Assembly (NCBI GenBank): GCA_963782915.1
Contig: CAWALK010000001.1
Coordinates: 64,001-128,000, forward strand
Source: an uncultured archaeon
GTDB taxonomy: Archaea; Thermoproteota; Bathyarchaeia; Bathyarchaeales; Bathycorpusculaceae
Direction of reading: 5' to 3'
DNA: 64,000 nucleotides
The stretch's first letter is position 1. Every line of letters begins with the position of its first letter. The notes beneath the pieces are model-generated. The model saw only the letters and a program-made list of their open reading frames with translations, had not been told where the DNA came from and did not search any database. A program made the translations under genes and the position numbers. Shown in pieces: positions 43,376 through 53,104 of the stretch.

Positions 43376-44502
43376 GGGATTATTTCGGCGCCGTTAAACT
43401 TTATATAATCAAAATCTTCCAGCCTAATTCGTCCGCTTTGAATGAGTTGTTGTATTCTTGGCAGATTACGCTGCACCGATTCAATCAATTGCTCCACAGT
43501 AAAGCAGACTTTGCCATAAGCATCGTCAGGCCACCGCTTAACAATGTTAGTGTATAGGCATCGTCCCCCGCAAACACCCAAAATTTTGCATTCACTGCAT
43601 GGTTTCTGGCTAACAAAGAGTTTAGGCAATTTTAGCGGATCTGCGTCTTTTATGTGGCCCATATAGTAGGCTTTCATTCCCCACATGGTTGGGCAAGGTA
43701 TTATTTGGCCATCCATCTGGATAGAGTAGTTTATCCATCCGCTGCCACAACGCATCAACGCATTCTCTTCACCGTGCAAGAGTGAGTTTGTGATGCCCAG
43801 AATCGGGTAGAGCTTGAGCACCTTTCCCGTCTGCTCCATCTCGTCTACCCAGTAACGGACTAGAGAATCAACGCCTGGGATATAGCTGGATTTGGTCCAT
43901 TCCTCAAAGTTGCGGCGTTTAAAATCGTTGCCCCAGAAACCCGCGTTGAGTTGCCAATGAATTGAAGTGAACGAGAATTCATCATTATGCAGGAGCCATT
44001 TCACTTGTTTTTCTATATCGGTTTGCTCCATGATCGTCATTCTTGCTATTAACTCGCCTTTGAAACCGTTTTGTTTTATGAGTTTGAGGTTATCGATGAC
44101 TTTGCGGAAGGTGCCTTTTCCACGGTAATAGTCTGTGAGGGCTTCTTCGCCATCGATTGATACCAGCAGAGTATGGAAGCGGTTGACGTATTGGGGCTCA
44201 AGTTTATCGAGCAGTAAACCGTTTGTTTGCATCATGTACAGTTTAGGCGTGACTGTATCCATGATTTGGCGCAGTTTATCCATCTGCATTAAGGGTTCAC
44301 CGCCATAGAAAGTTAAAACACAGTCGGGGTCCTTTTTGACAAAGCCTTCCAGTTGGGCTATGTCGTAGTTGGCTTTGCGGGGCAAGTTATAATCGACTTC
44401 TATGTCGTCTCCGAATTCCTCGTCAAAGTCATCCATGCTTTCGCCGAAGCAGTATTTGCATTGCAGGTTGCAGTCGCTGGTGAGCAGTAGATGGAAGAAC
44501 AT
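43372..44502 (-). CDS. Radical SAM/SPASM protein (TIGR04084/AF0577-like)
   Basis: CNLQCKYC, FYGGEPL, QTNG.LL, SIDG; SPASM region CGSG...PCP...CxxC....CGGRC. Confidence 0.85.
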   Translation of the reverse strand: MFFHLLLTSDCNLQCKYCFGESMDDFDEEFGDDIEVDYNLPRKANYDIAQLEGFVKKDPDCVLTFYGGEPLMQMDKLRQIMDTVTPKLYMMQTNGLLLDKLEPQYVNRFHTLLVSIDGEEALTDYYRGKGTFRKVIDNLKLIKQNGFKGELIARMTIMEQTDIEKQVKWLLHNDEFSFTSIHWQLNAGFWGNDFKRRNFEEWTKSSYIPGVDSLVRYWVDEMEQTGKVLKLYPILGITNSLLHGEENALMRCGSGWINYSIQMDGQIIPCPTMWGMKAYYMGHIKDADPLKLPKLFVSQKPCSECKILGVCGGRCLYTNIVKRWPDDAYGKVCFTVEQLIESVQRNLPRIQQLIQSGRIRLEDFDYIKFNGAEIIP

Positions 44503-44528
44503 GACTTAACCTTAGATATTGGGGATGC

Positions 44529-45869
44529 TTAATAGTATTTTTCTGCTAATTTCTTGGCATCTTCATAATTCTTATCAGTTTCAGGTGTCGAATTAATTTG
44601 TTTCTTGTTTTTCTTCTTGAGTAGGTTTTTGTTTTTTACCTACTTTTTCTGCTTCTTTTGTAGCTTTCTTTTTGGCGTTTTCAATATAGCTTTTGAGGTC
44701 CCGGTCTTTCATAAGTTTTTCAGGCAAAGTTTCAGGAGCATAAATCAACGGCAAAACCGCGAGAAAGAGGAAGACACTAGCAAATGGGAAAATCGTACTG
44801 CCTCTGCATGAGAGAGAAATGGCGTAAACAGTAATTGCATGAAATAGGAGGATATGTAAGGCAATGCGCCTAAAACATAGAATTTGTCGCCTTTTCCATT
44901 TTGGGCCAGATCACCCCATAATGTAAAAACAAATAATACGAAAAATATTCCCCAAGCTATACCGTCAGCTACGAAATAAATTATGCTTCCCAATAATAGA
45001 TCTGCGCCATTGATGGAAAACATCCCTATTACGGCATATCCGATACCAAGCATAACGAAACCTAATATCGATAATCGTTTACGGCCCCACTTATCAGCAA
45101 CCAAACCACATATTACTGCTACAATGGCTGTTACAACATTCTCCATTGCAACCAGTAGAGTATATTGAGCGTTATTTGTCGCAAAAAGAGTACTTTGAAT
45201 TGGCATAGTCATAAAATTAATGAGAGTAAACATACACCAAGGGACAAAGTACAGAACAAAGGATTTATTGAAAATTATTTTTGTATAATTTTACCTTACT
45301 AGTCTGTTTAATCGGTTCCTCTTTGCCAATTAAGGAGATAGAAAAATACTAAACCTATCAACCGAATAAAAGCAAGAATCAAGCAACTATGCAATAAGCG
45401 AGTCGAATACTACTAAACCAAGGATAGCAAATGTAATTCCAATTATCAAAAATGAAATCCCACTAATTTTTGCTCTATTCTCAACAGTTGTAACGACAGC
45501 GTGATAGCCCATAGTAGCGGGCATGCCTATGCCGAAATATACCCCAAAGACAGCGGATATTATTACTAAACCACTAAAACTTGAAGCGTTATAGACCAAG
45601 GGGTATAACAGATAAAATAACACCGCTTGCTAACCAGACTAAAAGGAAATCTCCTCGCTTCTTGAATTTGTCGAATAAAAGTACCCAGCGAATGCTGAGA
45701 GTACTATTGCCAAGGTGTTAATTCCAATTATTTGAAGTGTCAATAATGTGGCATCTTGTTTTGGAAGTAGGTCCTTTATGGTATCAAATGCAAGTAAATA
45801 CCACACAAAAGCGTTCACTACTAGCATTATGTTTGCAGTGGCAAATCTTAGGCTTGTCCTATTTGGCAT
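44529..45869 (-). CDS. MFS-like multipass membrane protein (several indels)
   Basis: Fragments 45639-45887, 45387-45623 and 44745-45233 join into one gene; motif G.VADKWGRK; tail PETLP...YEDAKKLAEKYY. Confidence 0.7.
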
Positions 45870-46071
45870 GGGCCATGTGTGGAACATCTACACTTTAGTT
45901 ACAACTATTGTGTGCAGCAAGTTAAGGGTTGAGTATGAATAAACCAGATTAGTGGTAACTAAACTACCGAAAAAGCTTTAAAGTATATCTGTAGAACAGG
46001 AATACAGAGAGGAGACCTAAATTGAAAACAAACACACAAAATCATAAGATCAGTAGGTTGGTATTAGTTAA

Positions 46072-47070
46072 TTATTCAAAGTAGGTGAGAGGGACTAATA
46101 GGAGATCTCCCAGTTCTTCTCTTATTTTTCCATTAATTGAAGTTGGCAATTGTTGGACGACCGTTTTTGTGTCGGCTACCAAAGTTTTTTGAAGAAGTTT
46201 GACCTCGTTTGATTCAAGGACTATTTCAATAATTTTCTGATGGCGCTCATTCTGCAATGAATCTCCATTTAACAAGGGGAACAGCATACTCTTGATTTGT
46301 GGGTTTTCAAGAGCATATATAATCGGTAAAGGAGGGCATTCATTTTTCAACCTACTTTTAAGCTCCTCAAAATCTAAGAGATCAGCAAACTCCTCCACTA
46401 TGATAGAAGTAACCCCGTATGCTCTGCCAAATTGCCCAAGCCTTTCAACATCATCCGAATTACCCCCTCCAATGATGGCGCCGATTTTCATAGTTAACTC
46501 AGGAACAACCGCTTTTAACCGTATTATCTCATTGAATTTAGCTGGGTTGAAATCTTGTTGATTGTGAAGCTGGATTTCAAGGATTTCCGCATTACAGATT
46601 TCCAAAACTGCTTCGGTAACTAACTTCATGACTCTTCCGAATGCTTCAGGGTTTTGGTTGATTGCTTCACTTAACCTCTTGAAACCTTCCGCTAGTAAAA
46701 TATCCCCCGCAAGAATAGTTGTTGCCAAGCCATATTTTCCAAAAACTGTTTGTTTCATGTTTTTTCGAACCGACTGGTCAAGGACATCATCGTGTAAATC
46801 GGCTGAGGCAGTTATGAAAACTATTGCTTCAGCAAAAGGAGCAACTCTTTTGGTGTCGCCTTCAACTGCTTCACAAGACATAGTAATTAATGCTGGAAAA
46901 ACAGGTATGGGGCTATGGAGCGTAACATTAGCGAAGTATCGGAGTGCTTGTGAGATATAACTGTCATCGTTGAAGTTTACAATGATGCTGTTTTTAGTGT
47001 TATTCATGGCGGGTCCGCCTTTTTGCTTGAAACTTCTTTTAATGGCGCGTAACTTCGAATCGTTGGACAT
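46072..47070 (-). CDS. Polyprenyl-synthetase-fold protein with degenerate IPP-binding motifs (ComQ-like candidate prenyltransferase)
   Basis: First Asp-rich motif LHDDVLD and ILAGD.LL retained; GKxxRP replaced by PIPVFP, RRG by RKN, second DDxxD by EEFAD. Confidence 0.8.
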   Translation of the reverse strand: MSNDSKLRAIKRSFKQKGGPAMNNTKNSIIVNFNDDSYISQALRYFANVTLHSPIPVFPALITMSCEAVEGDTKRVAPFAEAIVFITASADLHDDVLDQSVRKNMKQTVFGKYGLATTILAGDILLAEGFKRLSEAINQNPEAFGRVMKLVTEAVLEICNAEILEIQLHNQQDFNPAKFNEIIRLKAVVPELTMKIGAIIGGGNSDDVERLGQFGRAYGVTSIIVEEFADLLDFEELKSRLKNECPPLPIIYALENPQIKSMLFPLLNGDSLQNERHQKIIEIVLESNEVKLLQKTLVADTKTVVQQLPTSINGKIREELGDLLLVPLTYFE

Positions 47071-47187
47071 TGATTTCAGCTCTTATCTTAGTTAACCAAA
47101 GTATTTTAAAATCAAATTAGGCTCTTTTTGCTTATTAATCAATGGGAAGATTAAGGGATAAAAAAAATTACCCCTTGTTTTTGTTAA

Positions 47188-47241
47188 TTAGTACCATCCG
47201 ACAGATGCTGGCGCGCGTGCTTTGATGATTTTTCTGTTCAT
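47188..47241 (-). CDS. 17-aa putative precursor peptide MNRKIIKARAPASVGWY
   Basis: RBS GAGGTGAA (47246-47253) just before the ATG; TAA stop; hairpin and T-run downstream; directly upstream of the ComQ-like gene. Confidence 0.7.
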   Translation of the reverse strand: MNRKIIKARAPASVGWY

Positions 47242-47280
47242 GTATTTCACCTCTTAGTGTAGCCCTGATTATTGTGATTT

Positions 47281-48120
47281 TTACTCCAAGTATCCATTGA
47301 TCCATGCGAGTACTTGAGGTGTGTCAAGTCTTGTGTGGTAGCTTACGCCGCCACAGTTGCTGCTTGAAACAAATGCGTTGACTGCCAATACGGTGTCTTT
47401 TCCGTCTTGGGTGTAGATTACAGGGCCGCCTGAATCGCCGAATACTATTGCGCCTTTGCCGCCGCCGTTGTTGGCGGTTAATTTTAGGTAGCAGCTGCTG
47501 CCTTCAAAGTTGGATGGTACCAGTTGTACTTGGGCGCTGTTGCGTGATAGGGTGCCAATCCAGGAATATTCTGGGCCATTGTTTCTTGGGTTGGTTTGGG
47601 TTTGCATGCCATATCCGATGATTGTCAAATCTGTTTTGGATGCTAAGGTTTCCGCTATACCTGCTTGGGGAAGTGCTGGAAACTCTGTTATGCCAGTGAC
47701 TGGTTGGTCCAGTATTATTAAGCCGATGTCGCTAGTAGAGAATTCTTGGTTGCCTGAAAATGCAGGAGCATATTCTGAATAGGTTACTCGTGTACCTGTG
47801 TAGATTGTGTCTGCACCATAATAGATGACTTGTCCGTCTTGGATGGCGTAGCTGATTGGACCCTGATCGAAGCAGACGCTGACTGCCTCTGCGCCGAGCA
47901 GGCTGTGTCCGGCTGTAACCATCACTGTTGGGGAAATGAGGAATCCGCTACAGTAGCCGAAGGGATGCTGTCGGGCGGCATCGCTGAAGAGTACGACGAC
48001 TCCAACGTATGGGGTTGCGTCTGGCCGGGAGTTGCCTGTTATTGCTGTAGCTGTGCCAAAGAATAATGGTGCAGAAAGTAAACATGATAGTGCAATTATT
48101 ATTGCCCAAGCTTTTTTCAT
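47281..48120 (-). CDS. Secreted S1 (trypsin-fold) serine protease
   Basis: Signal peptide; motifs CSGFLI, TAGH, DIGLI, GDSGGP. Confidence 0.9.
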   Translation of the reverse strand: MKKAWAIIIALSCLLSAPLFFGTATAITGNSRPDATPYVGVVVLFSDAARQHPFGYCSGFLISPTVMVTAGHSLLGAEAVSVCFDQGPISYAIQDGQVIYYGADTIYTGTRVTYSEYAPAFSGNQEFSTSDIGLIILDQPVTGITEFPALPQAGIAETLASKTDLTIIGYGMQTQTNPRNNGPEYSWIGTLSRNSAQVQLVPSNFEGSSCYLKLTANNGGGKGAIVFGDSGGPVIYTQDGKDTVLAVNAFVSSSNCGGVSYHTRLDTPQVLAWINGYLE

Positions 48121-48278
48121 ATTCTAAACCTGAATATACGATGTCGTGAGTAGCAATATATAAAGCGAGTGTATTGCAGCTACTGATTCAGCGCTTGTGC
48201 AACAAAACAACTGTACAACACAACTACATCACCAAAAAGCAAAACTCTTAATAGCCAAGCCTTTTATCACAAGGTTTT

Positions 48279-51164
48279 ATGAGCCAAACCAAGCAAATGG
48301 AGCAGAAATGGCAGCAAAAATGGGAAGCTGCGCATCTCTTCGAAGCCGACCCTGACCCCAAACGCGAAAAAAAGCTGGTAACTTTCCCGTTTCCATACAT
48401 GAATGGCCCATTGCATGTTGGCCACACCTTTACTGCCAGCCGCGTTGACGCTTATGCCCGTTTCAAGCGTATGCAGGGTTACAATGTGCTTTGGCCTTGG
48501 AGTTGGCACTGGACCGGTCAACCGCTGCTTGGTGCATCTCTGCGGGTGGCAAGGGGCGATGAAGCTTACATCAAAGTGCTGCGCGAAGTCGATGGCGTCC
48601 CTGAAGCGGAACTTCAAAAATTTGTTGACCCCTTCTATATGGCTCAATACTACACTAACGAGGGCCGTGCCGCTGTTAAGGGCGTTGGTTTCTCGGTTGA
48701 TTGGCGCCGCGAATTCACCACTGTTATGCCGACTTTCCAAAAGTTTGTGGAGTGGCAGTACAAGAACCTCAAAGAAAAAGGCTATGTCACCCGTGGCACT
48801 CATCCGGTGGTTTGGTGTCCTAAAGATCAATCTCCAACCGGTGACCATGACCGCCAAAGCGGCGAAGGCGTCACCCCCGAAGAATACACCCTAATCAAGT
48901 ACAAACTGCCCGACGGCACGGTTTTGCCTGCGGCGACTTTCCGCCCCGAAACCATCTACGGCATCACTAACATGTGGATTAACCCGGACGCCACCTACGT
49001 GGAAGCAGACGTCAACGGCGAAACCTGGATTATTAGCCAGGAAGCCGCTGAAAAACTCAAAGAACAAGAGAAAAAAGTCACAGTCAAACGCAGCTTCAAA
49101 GGCGCAGAACTCATAGGCAAAACCTTCGAAAACCCCGTTACAAAACTCAAGTTTCCGATTCTGCCCGGCTGGTTTGTTAACCCCAAAACCGCCACCGGCG
49201 TCGTCTACAGCGTCCCAGCCCATGCACCCTACGATTACCTCGCACTCACGAGACTTGCAGCAGAAGCCCGAAGTGCTCAGCCCAATTCGGCGTGGACCCC
49301 GCGATGGTGCAGGCGATTAAACCAATCTCAATCATTAAAGTCGAAGGCTTCGGCGAATACCCCGCAGTCGAAATCGTCGAAAAAATGGGCATCAAAAACC
49401 AAAATGATCCCAAAGCCGACGAAGCTACCAAAGAACTCTACAAAAAAGAGTTCCACGGAGGCAAACTAAAAGAAAACTGCGGACCCTACGCGGGCAAAAG
49501 CATCCGCGAAGCCAAAGACATCTTGATCGGTGACTTCAAAAAAATGGGCGTCGCCGACAGCATGTATGACCTCTCCGAACCAGTAGTTTGCCGATGCATG
49601 ACACAATGCATCGTAAAGATCCTCTCGGATCAATGGTTCCTTAACTACTCCGATCCGCAGTGGAAGGAGTTGGCGCATCAGGCGGTTGCGCAGATGAACA
49701 TTTACCCCGACTCAGCTAAACCATGGTTCAACACCGTGATCGATTGGCTACGCGAATGGGCTTGTGCACGCACAACTGGTTTTGGTACGCCGTTGCCGTG
49801 GGGTAAAGGCTGGATAATTGAGACGTTAAGCGACAGCACCGTTTACATGGCATTCTACACCATAAACAAACACATTAAACAGAACAGCATAAAACCTGAA
49901 TCACTAACAACCGATGTTTTCGACTATATCTACCTCGGCAAAGGCAATGCAGCGGAACTCTCACAATCCGTGGGAATCGACGTAACACTGTTGGATTCGA
50001 TGCGTAGCGAGTTCCTCTATTGGTACCCGCTTGACTTCCGCAACAGCGCCAAAGAACTGGTACCAAACCACCTTAGCTTCTGCATATTCCACCACGCCGC
50101 ATTATTCCCACCTGAGCATTGGCCCAGAGCCATCGGCGTCAACGGCATGCTAATGGTTGAAGGACAAGGCATGCATAAAAGCAAAGGCAACTTCATCACC
50201 ATGAAGGGCGCAGTCGAAAAGTACGGAGCAGATGCTACTCGCTGTGGGTTGCTGTTGGGTGCTGAAGGGATGGATGATCCCGATTGGCGAGCTGAAAACG
50301 TCAATGATCTCAAAACCAAATTTGAGAGTGTGATGGGTTTTGCAAGCAATATCCTTGCAACAGCCAAGAATGACGATAATACGGCTTTGGAGCGTTGGTT
50401 AGAGAGCCGTTTGCAGCAGCGCATAAAAGATGTTACAGCTGCGCTTGATGAGTTAAAGACTCGCACTGCACTGCAAACCGCGCTGTTTGAAACGTGGAAT
50501 GACCTGCGATGGTACATCCAACGTAAGGGCAACACCAACGCCAAGGTACTGGGCGATGCAGTTAAAGACTGGTTAAAGATGCTTGCGCCCTTTGCACCAT
50601 TCATGTGTGAGGAACTCTGGAGCCAAACAGGCGAAGAAGGCTTCATCAGCGTCGCCAAATGGCCAGTCTACGACCCAGCTAAAATAGATGCAGCCGCTGA
50701 GGAACAAGAAAACCTAGTCACTGCTGTCATGGGCGATACCAACAACATCTTGAAAGCCATGAAAATCGCGCCTGCCAAAATCGTTTACTACACCGCTGCT
50801 CCATGGAAATGGCAGGTTTACCTCAAAATCGTCGAGAAAACCTTAGCTGGCGAAGCAAAAATCAACGAGTTAATGAAGGAATTCGCCTCTGACCCCGCCT
50901 TGAAGCCGCATATGAAAGACATCGCCCCAATGGTACCCACGCATAATTAAAGCACTCACCAAAGTTTCAGGCGACCGCAAAGCAAACATAACCAAAATCC
51001 GCGAAGTAGACGAAAAAGCAATCCTCCAAGGCACAGCAGCATTCTATAAAGACCGCTTCAACGCAGAAATAGCAGTTTACGGCGAATCTGACGAGCAACG
51101 CTTCGACCCCAAAAGCCGCTCAGCAATGGCAATGCCCTATCAGCCAGCAATCTACATCGAATAA
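48279..51164 (+). CDS. leuS: Leucine-tRNA ligase (archaeal type), split by 2 indels
   Basis: PYMNG.LHVGH, DW.REF.T, T.RPET, IE.LSDST.Y, MHKSKGN, C-terminal P...AIYIE. Confidence 0.95.
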
Positions 51165-51373: not shown

Positions 51374-53104
51374 TTAATTGTGGTAGGTTATTCGGAAAGG
51401 CTTGAGTTTTTGAAGCACAAACGTTTTGCGTGTAACAATCGTTATGGCGGCGATTGTACCTAAACTGAGCATAACCCCGCTAGGAGGCGGTGTCGCCAAA
51501 GCGTTTTGCATAAAAAAGCCGCCATAATCTGGATACACTTTTACTCCATTCTGTAAACCACTGTTTAACTGAAGGCTATAATACAATATGCCCTGTTTGA
51601 AGTTACTTGCCGACAGCGAACCACCATAAGCGTAGTTTACTGAAAAAATCCTATAGGTACTCCAATTTTCCCCTTCGTCGGTGCTAAACCATATACCCGC
51701 TAACCACTCATTTGGGTGCTCACCGCCTGTGAAACTGGCAAATAAGTCCCCGTTTAAGTCGTTTCTTCGAATCCAATACCCATAGCATTGAGTGCCCGTA
51801 TCGAGAACAAGATTGAAGTTTTCGTCGTTTGTTGTTCGATAAATTTCTCCGTTATCATGATCCGTTGCTAGAAGCCTTGCTACTGGAATGAGTTTGCCGT
51901 TGGCATCTTTAGTGGTTACTGCTTCGATTGCGAGTATTTGTGGTAGCTTTAAGATTACCTCCCAGCTGCTATTGCTTATTGCTCCGTCGGTTGCGCGAAT
52001 GACGGATGAGTGCCATTGCGGCGTTATTCGTTCGTCACCGACTGAGGCGTAGATGTAATTGTTGCTTTTGTCAACCGTGATGCAGTGGATATGGCGGGCG
52101 TCTGAATCATTATATACGTTGATCCAGTGGGCACCGCCATCGATGCTTTTGTAGATGGATGCGCCACCTGTTGCTGGACCAGTAGTGTAGACACCTGCAA
52201 ACAAGTTGCCATAGACATCTTCAGTCATCGACAAAATACAGAAATCGGGGGGCAGAGGCAGGACTCTTGCCCAAGTTAGACCTCCGTTAATACTTCGCCA
52301 AATCCCCAACGTATTTGGTGTTGCAGTGGTGTCTGGTGAAGTAAAAATGAAATTTAGCCTGTTAACATACACGCATTTTATGGTTTGATTTGGGTCTCCG
52401 CTGAAGGTTAGCAGGGGCTGCCAATTTACTCCTTGGTTGGTGCTTTTGTAGAGTGTTTGGTATGTTCCAGCGTATAATGTGCCGTCGTTTGCAATCCAAC
52501 TTGCTCCTATTGGCTGGGTAAGGGACGTTTCTTGGTAGCCAGGTGGCGGCGGAGGTAATGGCGTTGGTGGAGGTGTTGGTGTTGGAGTTGGAATCGGTGT
52601 AGGTGTTGGCGTGGGTTTTGGTGTTGGGATTGCGGTTGGTGTTGGCGGATGTGTGGGTTTTGGTGTTATTGTCGGGGTTGACTTGGTGGTGGGATTAGGA
52701 GTTGGGGATGGTGCTGGAGTAGGGACGGGTGTTGGCGTTGGCGACTGGTCAGGTGTGGGATTTGGCGTTGGCGCGGCTGTAGGAGTCGCTGTGGGGGTGA
52801 GCGTAGGGCTAGAGGTCGTGTCAGGCGTTGGAGGTTGAGTCGGTAATGGTGAAGGTTTGAGATGTGGGGTTGGTGCTGGCGTAGGCGGCGCTTTTGTGTT
52901 TTGGGGGATTTGGGTTGGAGTCGGCGCTGGCGTTGTAGATGGTGGCTCAATAGAGTTGTTGTTTCTGGAATCTTGGTCGTACAGAGCGGAAGTCTGTGTT
53001 ACAATCCAAAGAGGCACCAATATTAATGCAAGAATACTCAGAATTACTATTGCCCTTTTGATGGGTTTTTTGGCTGTGAGGGTGCAGACAAGTCTATGAT
53101 ACAA
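51374..53104 (-). CDS. Surface protein: Pro/Thr stalk plus BNR/Asp-box beta-propeller
   Basis: N-terminal TM, long PT-rich tract, Asp-boxes YKSTNQG, WRSINGG, YKSIDGG, WFSTDEG, C-terminal hydrophobic segment. Confidence 0.75.
   Translation of the reverse strand: MYHRLVCTLTAKKPIKRAIVILSILALILVPLWIVTQTSALYDQDSRNNNSIEPPSTTPAPTPTQIPQNTKAPPTPAPTPHLKPSPLPTQPPTPDTTSSPTLTPTATPTAAPTPNPTPDQSPTPTPVPTPAPSPTPNPTTKSTPTITPKPTHPPTPTAIPTPKPTPTPTPIPTPTPTPPPTPLPPPPPGYQETSLTQPIGASWIANDGTLYAGTYQTLYKSTNQGVNWQPLLTFSGDPNQTIKCVYVNRLNFIFTSPDTTATPNTLGIWRSINGGLTWARVLPLPPDFCILSMTEDVYGNLFAGVYTTGPATGGASIYKSIDGGAHWINVYNDSDARHIHCITVDKSNNYIYASVGDERITPQWHSSVIRATDGAISNSSWEVILKLPQILAIEAVTTKDANGKLIPVARLLATDHDNGEIYRTTNDENFNLVLDTGTQCYGYWIRRNDLNGDLFASFTGGEHPNEWLAGIWFSTDEGENWSTYRIFSVNYAYGGSLSASNFKQGILYYSLQLNSGLQNGVKVYPDYGGFFMQNALATPPPSGVMLSLGTIAAITIVTRKTFVLQKLKPFRITYHN
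52540..52945 (-). repeat. Low-complexity (Pro-Thr)n coding repeat
   Basis: TPTP/TPAP iterations within the CDS. Confidence 0.8.

Follow-up and report, generated by a model that had tools for sequence, protein, structure and literature searches.

Tryptophan-ended micro-genes tied to a divergent prenyl-synthase-like gene in Bathyarchaeia: candidate precursors of prenylated peptides

A stretch of 64,000 nucleotides from an uncultured archaeon of the Bathycorpusculaceae (positions 64,001-128,000 of contig CAWALK010000001.1, assembly GCA_963782915.1, genome size 3.28 Mb; hereafter 'the window') carries a 17-codon open reading frame (ORF), here named pepA, between the genes for a secreted protease and for a protein resembling polyprenyl synthetases. 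Genome comparisons place pepA in a family of micro-genes that is genetically tied to a divergent homolog of the trans-IDS (trans-isoprenyl-diphosphate synthases). A second member, pepB, converges on the 3′ end of the same enzyme gene. The genes of this family have 12-20 codons and encode peptides with a basic N-terminus and a Trp zero to two residues from the end. We propose that pepA encodes a minimal precursor of a peptide made by ribosomes and modified after translation (RiPP) similar to ComX and PalX, whose Trp would be prenylated by the adjacent enzyme before export and possibly trimming, and we give this reading a probability of roughly 55%. Coordinates of all features are collected in Table 1.

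A conserved 17-codon gene beside a prenyl-synthase-like gene

The preliminary description of this DNA, made from its letters, had pointed to an unannotated 17-codon ORF with a strong ribosome-binding site and a terminal G-W-Y, followed by a hairpin with a T-run. The ORF is real, with coordinates, Shine-Dalgarno (SD) sequence and stop codon exactly as claimed: on the minus strand the ATG starts at 47241 and the TAA occupies 47190-47188, 39 nt after the protease stop and 117 nt before the polyprenyl-synthetase-like gene. The SD sequence GAGGTGA is a perfect 7-nt complement to the 3′ end of the genome's own 16S rRNA (...GGATCACCTCCT), and GAGGTG or GGAGGTG is kept ahead of pepA orthologs. Of 304,431 stop-bounded segments in the six frames of the genome, only 2 have G-W-Y at their end; they lie 1.1 kb apart, flanking the same synthetase-like gene.

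A DNA search among 61 relatives recovered the region in four genomes, the window's own included. All four carry a pepA ortholog between protease and enzyme, with SD sequence (GAGGTGAAA), start position, frame and Trp kept and with peptides ending in ...SVGWY, ...TGGWY, ...QAGWI and ...NWGGW. Loss of start codon, frame or Trp in close relatives had been named beforehand as the outcome that would speak against the ORF, and synonymous divergence as the one that would speak for it; all three are kept, and substitutions are concentrated at third codon positions. Six 16-codon pepA orthologs differ pairwise at codon positions 1/2/3 by 0.20/0.16/0.39, with ungapped flanks at 0.62-0.64, and show 53 synonymous versus 70 non-synonymous codon differences. 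For ten 14-codon pepB genes the corresponding values are 0.32/0.23/0.39, flanks at 0.55-0.59, and 132 synonymous versus 234 non-synonymous differences. The TGG codon is invariant in all 16 ORFs compared, and Arg, Gly and Ile codons vary freely. By these comparisons pepA is not a chance ORF, and the pepA and pepB ORFs are very probably translated genes.

The hairpin and T-run described 3′ of the ORF are likewise present, as an 8-bp stem (47175-47168 pairing with 47161-47154) whose T-rich loop is part of a T8 run, though the stability of the fold is not unusual (minimum free energy -12.6 kcal/mol, z = -1.13, 33 of 200 shuffles folding as well). Because the hairpin energy is ordinary, the T-run, which is the usual archaeal termination signal, is the more telling of the two, and a T-run stands 3′ of five of the six orthologous pepA genes compared. 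The enzyme gene has a TATA-like box of its own (Table 1), and the element might yield more peptide mRNA than enzyme mRNA, as the preliminary description suggested. An Rfam search of 45800-47400 with E up to 1 returned no match to a known RNA.

Conserved N-termini and a variable core

Two kinds of N-terminus recur in the peptide family, M-N/K-K-K-I-I-R-x-K-P and M-K-x-N-x-K-L-I-R. Peptides of the A type have about 16-17 codons and follow M-N-K-K-I-I-R-G/A-K-P-x-x-x-G-W-x, while those of the B type have 14 codons and follow M-K-V-N-x-K-L/I-I/T-R-x-x-G-W-x. Each N-terminus is conserved among genomes, and the A and B types do not resemble one another. Where the enzymes are 30-35% identical, the peptides have a different look yet are recognizably of one kind, with the pattern M-K-x-K-P-I/V-R-P-I-R-x-Y/F/G-W-W/Y/x.

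The last five residues are common to pepA and pepB within a genome and different between genomes, with variants that include SVGWY, TGGWY, QAGWI, TAGWL, SSGWV, SAGWM, SMGWW, WSGWL, VVGWL, TFGGW and others. Identical last-five sequences were found in 16 of 29 automatically picked pepA-pepB pairs versus 9 of 812 cross-locus pairs, and none of 20,000 permutations reached 16; by eye, 8 of the 29 pepA picks made automatically are spurious, which lowers the identity count. Since paralogs with different N-termini share the same last five residues, the C-terminal pentapeptide behaves as a core under concerted, species-specific selection. The family thereby combines a conserved recognition part with a variable core, which is the arrangement of RiPP precursors. 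The preliminary description had proposed such a layout, with a basic leader and G-W-Y as the core; the paralog pairs bear out the division into leader and core, and the conserved part of the core shrinks to G-W. The terminal Tyr varies among relatives (GWY, GWH, GWI, GWL, GWV, GWM, GWW, GGW), and across the family the last residue is Y, H, I, L, V, M, W, F, R or none, with Trp kept and a preceding Gly often present.

Some loci depart from these patterns. In a closed Bathy-6 genome, a micro-ORF converging on a second enzyme paralog (L124:2830-3040) has the basic stretch ...RKKPVR but the end F-T-I. In one subclade (L050, L052, L055 = L019-L022) none of the last 24 codons for the peptide ...KITKKICTRAKPSGWY is ATG, GTG or TTG, and the peptide may use an unusual start codon or belong to a longer ORF; there, an ORF of about 450 aa precedes the enzyme gene and one of 361 aa follows it, in place of the usual protease and MFS transporter.

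Genetic linkage of peptide and enzyme across Bathyarchaeia

Enzyme homologs at E <= 1e-20 are present in 88 of 120 genomes of the window's genus, a figure that, like every locus and genome count given here, describes spread and not separate events, related genomes being non-independent. Among the 30 best same-genus loci, 29 have at least one micro-ORF ending in G-W plus zero to two residues immediately next to the enzyme gene. The usual layout is protease, pepA and enzyme, then pepB on the opposite strand; the stops of pepB and of the enzyme gene are 4 nt apart in the window and 4 nt apart or overlapping in other genomes. Where the protease stands upstream on the enzyme's strand, pepA lies between the two in 16 of 16 related loci, and this second copy, following a secreted protease, is a feature of the window's clade.

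A scan with one genome per species gave 80 enzyme loci, nearly all titled Candidatus Bathyarchaeota or Bathyarchaeia (including Bathy-6 and Bathycorpusculum). For the convergent side, a loose pattern was counted on the opposite strand from -40 to +100 nt of the enzyme stop in the 74 loci with full flank. A convergent micro-ORF is present at the enzyme 3′ end in 65 of these, versus an expectation of 0.06 for a window of equal size in other parts of the loci. Circularity is avoided by a pick blind to Trp, which accepted basic, SD-led ORFs of 9-30 codons in the same convergent place and which found one in 70 of 94 distinct loci. A Trp occurs among the last four residues in 62 of these 70; the last Trp is followed by a single residue in 45 and by two in 2, and is itself terminal in 15, and Gly precedes it in 29. 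In a class-wide draw of 301 genomes, the 54 genomes with a strong enzyme match (E < 1e-35) fall mostly in the window's family and order, and the weaker matches resemble ordinary synthases.

Three cassette-bearing records (L054, L058, L082) are titled Sulfotelmatobacter, Limnocylindrales and Nanoarchaeia. The Limnocylindrales-titled record has a contig stretch identical to a genome of the window's genus, so its title looks wrong. Loci L134 and L145 of genus g7, which belongs to the window's order, have two tandem enzyme-family genes followed by an ORF of about 400 aa, maybe a variant of the system.

A divergent third prenyl synthase paralog

The enzyme matches PF00348 with 80.8 bits (1.8e-22); its best NCBIfam matches are IdsA and geranylgeranyl diphosphate (GGPP) synthase, far below every equivalog cut-off. 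Because the genome holds two canonical polyprenyl synthases elsewhere, with 197 bits and 172 bits (the latter split), the enzyme is an extra, divergent third paralog. A role as housekeeping GGPP synthase was rejected on the same ground.

Its motifs were compared over 30 family members. The first Asp-rich motif (FARM) of the trans-IDS, H-D-D-x-x-D, is invariant in 30 of 30 (HDDVLD here, with H93, D94, D95 and D98 all invariant). In chain-elongating synthases, the basic residues of G-G-K-x-x-R and R-R-G hold isopentenyl diphosphate (IPP). The first of these is absent, GGKGLRPAL of the canonical paralog being replaced by L-P-V-F-P-A-L, and the second has become K-x-x-K/R-x-T. The consensus F-Q-x-x-D-D-x-x-D has become [ST]-I-[IV]-[ED]-E-F-x-D, so that the position of the second Asp-rich motif (SARM) reads [ED]-E-[FCM]-x-D (EEFAD here, with E227 and D230 invariant). 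Judged by these motifs, the IPP-binding elements of chain-elongating synthases are lost in the enzyme family.

An AlphaFold2 model (pLDDT 92.7) has the trans-IDS fold. Foldseek gives a TM score of 0.82 to the GGPP synthase 1wy0 and of 0.72 to the indole prenyltransferase Ord1 (9v4g, rank 25), and the sequence search gives E values of 7.5e-19 and 2.5e-11 respectively. Chains 3aqb and 9kp1 are also among the fold matches. The nearest ESM Atlas clusters are 'polyprenyl synthetase' groups, mostly from Bathyarchaeota and with one Chloroflexota cluster at 0.97; these matches are a lead only. Between the same genomes, enzyme identity is 50-61%, versus 72-81% for the radical S-adenosylmethionine (rSAM) protein encoded nearby, so the enzyme evolves fast, like the peptide core. 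The TTTTAAA element within the TATA-like box of the enzyme gene also stands before pepB genes.

Comparison with known peptide-modifying systems

Several bacterial enzymes of the trans-IDS fold are known to prenylate peptides. According to PMC10853753, ComQ prenylates the Trp of ComX and keeps the FARM without a SARM, and PalQ prenylates a conserved C-terminal Trp of PalX. The characterized trans-IDS-like peptide prenyltransferases treated in PMC13290415 are all bacterial and all target a Trp at or near the C-terminus; PalQ is described there as favoring GW and GGW ends, a Gly before the Trp being helpful, and a Gln just upstream of the SARM as common to these Trp prenyltransferases, forming a hydrogen-bond network to the indole N-H. 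For StheQ, bioRxiv 10.64898/2026.08.29.745113 reports prenylation of the penultimate Trp of StheX, a peptide of 69 residues ending in W-W-x, together with a pseudo-SARM N-D-x-x-D (N215-D216) and Q212 one turn before it.

The enzyme family described here shares with ComQ, PalQ, StheQ and ChrPC-P the fold, the FARM, an adjacent Trp-ended peptide, the Gly before the Trp and the position of the Trp; its SARM is altered, though still acidic and not N-D. By analogy, we propose that the enzyme works like the trans-IDS-like peptide Trp prenyltransferases. It is not filed in the ComQ family, because the Gln feature is absent and the SARM position is acidic.

One close parallel is ComQ/ComX of Bacillus, a competence pheromone system in which the Trp is geranylated or farnesylated. 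In both systems a small peptide with a Trp near its end is encoded beside a trans-IDS-fold enzyme with FARM and altered SARM, a hypervariable core goes with a fast-diverging enzyme in a manner resembling pherotypes, and the mature part is a few C-terminal residues. ComX precursors have about 55 residues, whereas the precursors here have 12-20. The pseudo-SARM of ComQ is N-D-x-x-x and the motif here is [ED]-E-x-x-D. ComX is linked to a histidine kinase and a response regulator (comQXPA), whereas no kinase was seen in the loci here. Two further differences from ComQ/ComX are that the enzyme gene here has a precursor gene on either side, one of the pair being convergent, and that the host is an archaeon.

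PalX of Paenibacillus alvei has a very C-terminal acceptor Trp, and Trp is the last residue in 15 of 62 peptides here, many of which end in ...GGW or ...GW, the ends that PalQ favors. PalQ belongs to the isoprenoid-synthase superfamily and, like the enzyme here, was earlier annotated only as a terpene or polyprenyl synthase. In contrast, PalX has a long NHLP leader, cleaved between T72 and D73; extra residues behind the Trp cost PalQ its activity, whereas the Trp is the penultimate residue in 45 of the 62 peptides here; and a histidine kinase is encoded in the PalQ cluster. StheQ/StheX of Sphaerobacter thermophilus shares the acceptor Trp second from the end, as in GWY, and a short ORF that adjoins the enzyme gene, and its two terminal Trp resemble the ...YWW and ...GWW variants found here. 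StheX differs in having 69 residues and in lying on the same strand, downstream of the enzyme gene, and StheQ residues Q212 and N215-D216 are absent from the family here.

Mycofactocin offers a different kind of parallel. Its precursor MftA is very short, ends in G-V-Y and is served by the rSAM protein MftC, so that a very short precursor, a C-terminal Gly-x-Tyr and a nearby rSAM/SPASM gene are common to both. A mycofactocin-like reading was rejected, the terminal Tyr not being conserved; a variable Tyr also makes Tyr decarboxylation chemistry unlikely.

Proposed function and alternatives

In the proposed pathway, the intact FARM together with Mg2+ would bind an allylic prenyl diphosphate, and the C-terminal Trp of the peptide would replace IPP as acceptor, its indole being prenylated as by bacterial ComQ, PalQ and StheQ. 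The lipopeptide would be exported by the transporter of the major facilitator superfamily (MFS) encoded downstream, and its basic N-terminal part might be trimmed by the secreted trypsin-like protease, whose gene is probably co-transcribed with pepA. Further modification by the rSAM/SPASM protein is possible in the window's family. The product could serve as a signal or as a cationic lipopeptide.

A number of observations weigh against this reading. The SARM position, although altered, is still acidic and is not N-D-x-x-x, and the position aligned with the Gln upstream of the SARM is I, L, M, V or T in 30 of 30 members. By fold and by sequence, the enzyme is nearer to chain-elongating synthases than to Ord1, the one solved indole prenyltransferase of this fold. 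The pick blind to Trp found no micro-ORF in 24 of 94 loci, and among four g7 loci the loose pattern found no Trp-ended micro-ORF in two (L134, L145), L139 has no convergent-side peptide and L137 has one candidate. Some probable family members are without Trp, ending in ...RFNAF, ...LYGI (L136, L139) or ...RFTI (L124). The kinship of the genomes counted limits what the counts can carry, and an rSAM gene near the enzyme-family gene in 27 of 54 genomes offers an alternative chemistry within the same cluster.

This last point leads to the first alternative, in which the rSAM/SPASM protein (family TIGR04084) acts on the peptides, cross-linking the Trp as in streptide, forming a cyclophane or modifying the Trp in another way, and the synthetase-like gene is unrelated or auxiliary. 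The rSAM protein scores well above the TIGR04084 cut-off (Table 1), and its next-best matches are all peptide maturases (PapB ranthipeptide maturase at 1.5e-31, then nif11, DynA and YhhB). Streptide, in which an rSAM/SPASM enzyme forms a Lys-Trp cross-link, has a core with basic residues and a G-W motif, and the peptides here recall it: both systems have a short peptide with Lys/Arg and G-W and an rSAM/SPASM gene in the cluster. Unlike streptide-type enzymes, the rSAM protein here is without an N-terminal leader-recognition extension, its Cys motif starting from residue 11. The distribution of the gene is also uneven. By hand count among the 54 genomes with a strong enzyme match, the TIGR04084 gene lies 1.5-3.3 kb from the enzyme-family gene in the 27 cases, all in the window's family, at least 15 kb away on the same contig in 6 and on another contig in 10, and 11 genomes have no match at E <= 1e-40. 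Ten genomes were checked by hand for the closer arrangement, and in nine of them the rSAM gene is one MFS gene away from the enzyme gene. Linkage is restricted to the window's family, whereas family f7 has the peptide-enzyme pair without rSAM, genus g7 has TIGR04084 in 0 of 4 genomes and genus g16 has it 18-205 kb off or on another contig. In the other direction, TIGR04084 occurs in many genomes without a strong enzyme match and in the control Sulfolobus acidocaldarius. The rSAM protein is also far more conserved than the enzyme, whereas the peptide core is hypervariable.

Several genomes keep pepB with the rSAM gene distant (G107, G052, G325, G290) or with none found (G420, G331). In these the peptide follows the prenyl-synthase-like enzyme and not the rSAM gene. 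The rSAM gene is therefore not obligatorily linked to the precursors, being absent or distant in genomes that keep enzyme and peptide, and, unlike in streptide-type systems, the peptide-enzyme pair of other families does without it. We regard the alternative as unlikely: the partner enzyme is most likely encoded by the adjacent polyprenyl-synthetase-like gene, and not only by the rSAM gene. The two readings are not mutually exclusive, and the rSAM protein may be a second peptide-modifying enzyme in the window's family.

A second alternative, which we consider improbable, is that the micro-ORFs are translated but unmodified, and either bind and regulate the enzyme as a mini-subunit or tune the enzyme gene through their translation or through convergent transcription. 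The very tight position of the pepB stop at the enzyme stop would suit such a role, and pepB transcripts, having no obvious T-run, would continue into the enzyme gene in antisense. Some prenyl synthases are heteromers that include a small subunit, and 3aqb and 9kp1 are among the fold matches. Known small subunits have about 80 to 250 residues, however, and peptides of 14 residues are unlike them. A regulatory ORF also leaves unexplained the hypervariable last five residues that are identical between paralogs in one genome, the near-constant Trp (62 of 70), the transporter and the secreted protease. Finally, it is very improbable that conservation reflects an untranslated small RNA, terminator or promoter element in the 3′ untranslated region of the protease gene, because, although the ORF is very short and placed between a gene stop and a T-run, differences show a third-position and synonymous excess, the ATG/GTG/TTG, TGG and stop positions are invariant, the SD sequence is kept at a fixed distance from the start, the same peptide family is also encoded on the opposite strand and in different settings, under a promoter of its own, and the region has an ordinary hairpin and no Rfam match.

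With peptide prenylation as the preferred reading, a broader hypothesis can be framed: Bathyarchaeia would make ComX-like prenyl-Trp peptides from the shortest known RiPP precursors, of 12-20 codons and with almost no leader, using an enzyme that evolved independently from archaeal prenyl synthases, and the species-specific five-residue core, identical in both precursor genes of a genome, would act as a 'pherotype' for signaling between cells in the first archaeal peptide pheromone system. We hold this tentatively, as a possibility on the doubtful side. A full-text literature search returned no description of Trp-ending micro-peptides or peptide prenylation in Bathyarchaeia, nor of such an archaeal system, and no paper in it mentions TIGR04084. 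To our knowledge, Archaea have so far yielded very few RiPPs and no peptide pheromone. Bathyarchaeia rank among the commonest uncultured archaea in soils and sediments, and the prenylation reading, if it holds, would add a whole archaeal class to peptide-prenylation chemistry. It would also provide enzymes that recognize a peptide of about 14 residues, which would be attractive for enzymatic lipidation, and would mean that gene callers miss a conserved family of 12-20-codon genes. Should prenylation prove wrong, the close and widespread link of these micro-genes to a single enzyme family would still make them a clear experimental target.

Neighboring genes and state of the assembly

Table 1. 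Features of the pepA-pepB region, in coordinates of the window
Feature	Position	Strand	Basis
Secreted trypsin-like serine protease, 279 aa, GDSGG motif, signal-peptide-like N-terminus	47281..48120	-	Pfam Trypsin 9e-11
Shine-Dalgarno-like GAGGTGA, 5-nt spacer to pepA ATG	47247..47253	-	Sequence; 16S rRNA complementarity
pepA, 17 codons reading MNRKIIKARAPASVGWY + TAA	47188..47241	-	Sequence, orthologs, third-position excess
8-bp hairpin around T8 run, directly 3′ of pepA	47154..47175	-	Fold; probable oligo-T terminator of the protease-pepA transcript
TATA-like TTTTAAAATA, 32-41 nt upstream of enzyme ATG	47102..47111	-	Sequence; presumptive own promoter of the enzyme gene
Divergent trans-IDS-like protein, 332 aa, proposed peptide Trp prenyltransferase	46072..47070	-	PF00348, motifs, fold
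pepB, split over two frames	46022..46067	+	Intact 14-codon orthologs in other genomes
pepB promoter region: CTTTAAAG 45976-45983, TGTAGAACAGGAATACA 45990-46006, AGGAG 46010-46014	45976..46014	+	Sequence; 17 loci
MFS transporter fragments, at least three or four frame pieces	44745..45887	-	MFS_1 match on 162-aa piece
Radical SAM/SPASM protein, TIGR04084	43372..44502	-	307 bits vs cut-off 225

Eight other genomes have the genes for leucine-tRNA ligase (LeuRS), protease, pepA, enzyme, pepB, MFS transporter (about 450 aa) and TIGR04084 rSAM protein, or parts thereof. From the gene neighborhood, the MFS and rSAM/SPASM genes belong to the cluster in the window's family. Within it, the protease is a candidate maturation protease and the MFS protein a candidate exporter. 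At the place of the MFS fragments, five other genomes have an intact gene of about 450 aa.

In the window, pepB starts with TTG and four codons (MKTNT), has one extra base near 46037 and continues in the +1 frame with KIIRSVGWY and TAG. The frameshift means either a pseudogene or an assembly indel; pepA is intact. Other genes of this genome are broken in a similar way. The LeuRS gene (48279-50950, plus strand) lies in two overlapping frames that match profile positions 5-335 and 339-873 of 946, with the break near 49290, and the C-terminal part of about 70 profile positions is also absent from the second piece. The canonical polyprenyl synthase at contig C12:281257-282028 is split as well, into pieces matching PF00348 positions 2-191 and 188-249. 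For 44500-49600 no RNA run was listed, and the one DNA run listed, X1 (soil, contigs, share 0.18), covers neither pepA nor pepB. Compared with the window, X1 has one-base omissions at 45287 and 45328 in the MFS region; applying both extends one MFS fragment from 181 to 220 aa and leaves the gene still broken. Because the essential LeuRS, the MFS transporter and the canonical synthase are all split, and because X1 shows single-base differences, the assembly probably carries indel errors, and the frameshift is no ground for calling pepB a pseudogene.

The promoter of pepB has a common layout in 17 loci, with ccgaaaa-TTTTAAAG, about 8 nt, TGTAGAACA-n-TAATACA, AGGAG and ATG. Between the TATA-like box and the SD sequence it contains a TGTA-N9-TACA element (45990-46006 in the window, plus strand), which is sometimes doubled as TGTTGTACA-n-AATAC. 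The 17-mer TGTAGAACAGGAATACA has one exact match in the genome, and look-alikes with 1-2 mismatches precede unrelated genes, so it is not claimed as a specific regulator or operator site. Similar words stand before unrelated genes also at 48212-48228, between protease and LeuRS, and TGTA-N9-TACA may be an element that stands near promoters generally in these archaea.

Further along the window, 51374-53104 (minus strand) encodes a protein of 576 aa that has a long linker rich in Pro and Thr, gives weak matches of the BNR/Asp-box and sortilin-like kinds, and is probably secreted or exposed at the surface.

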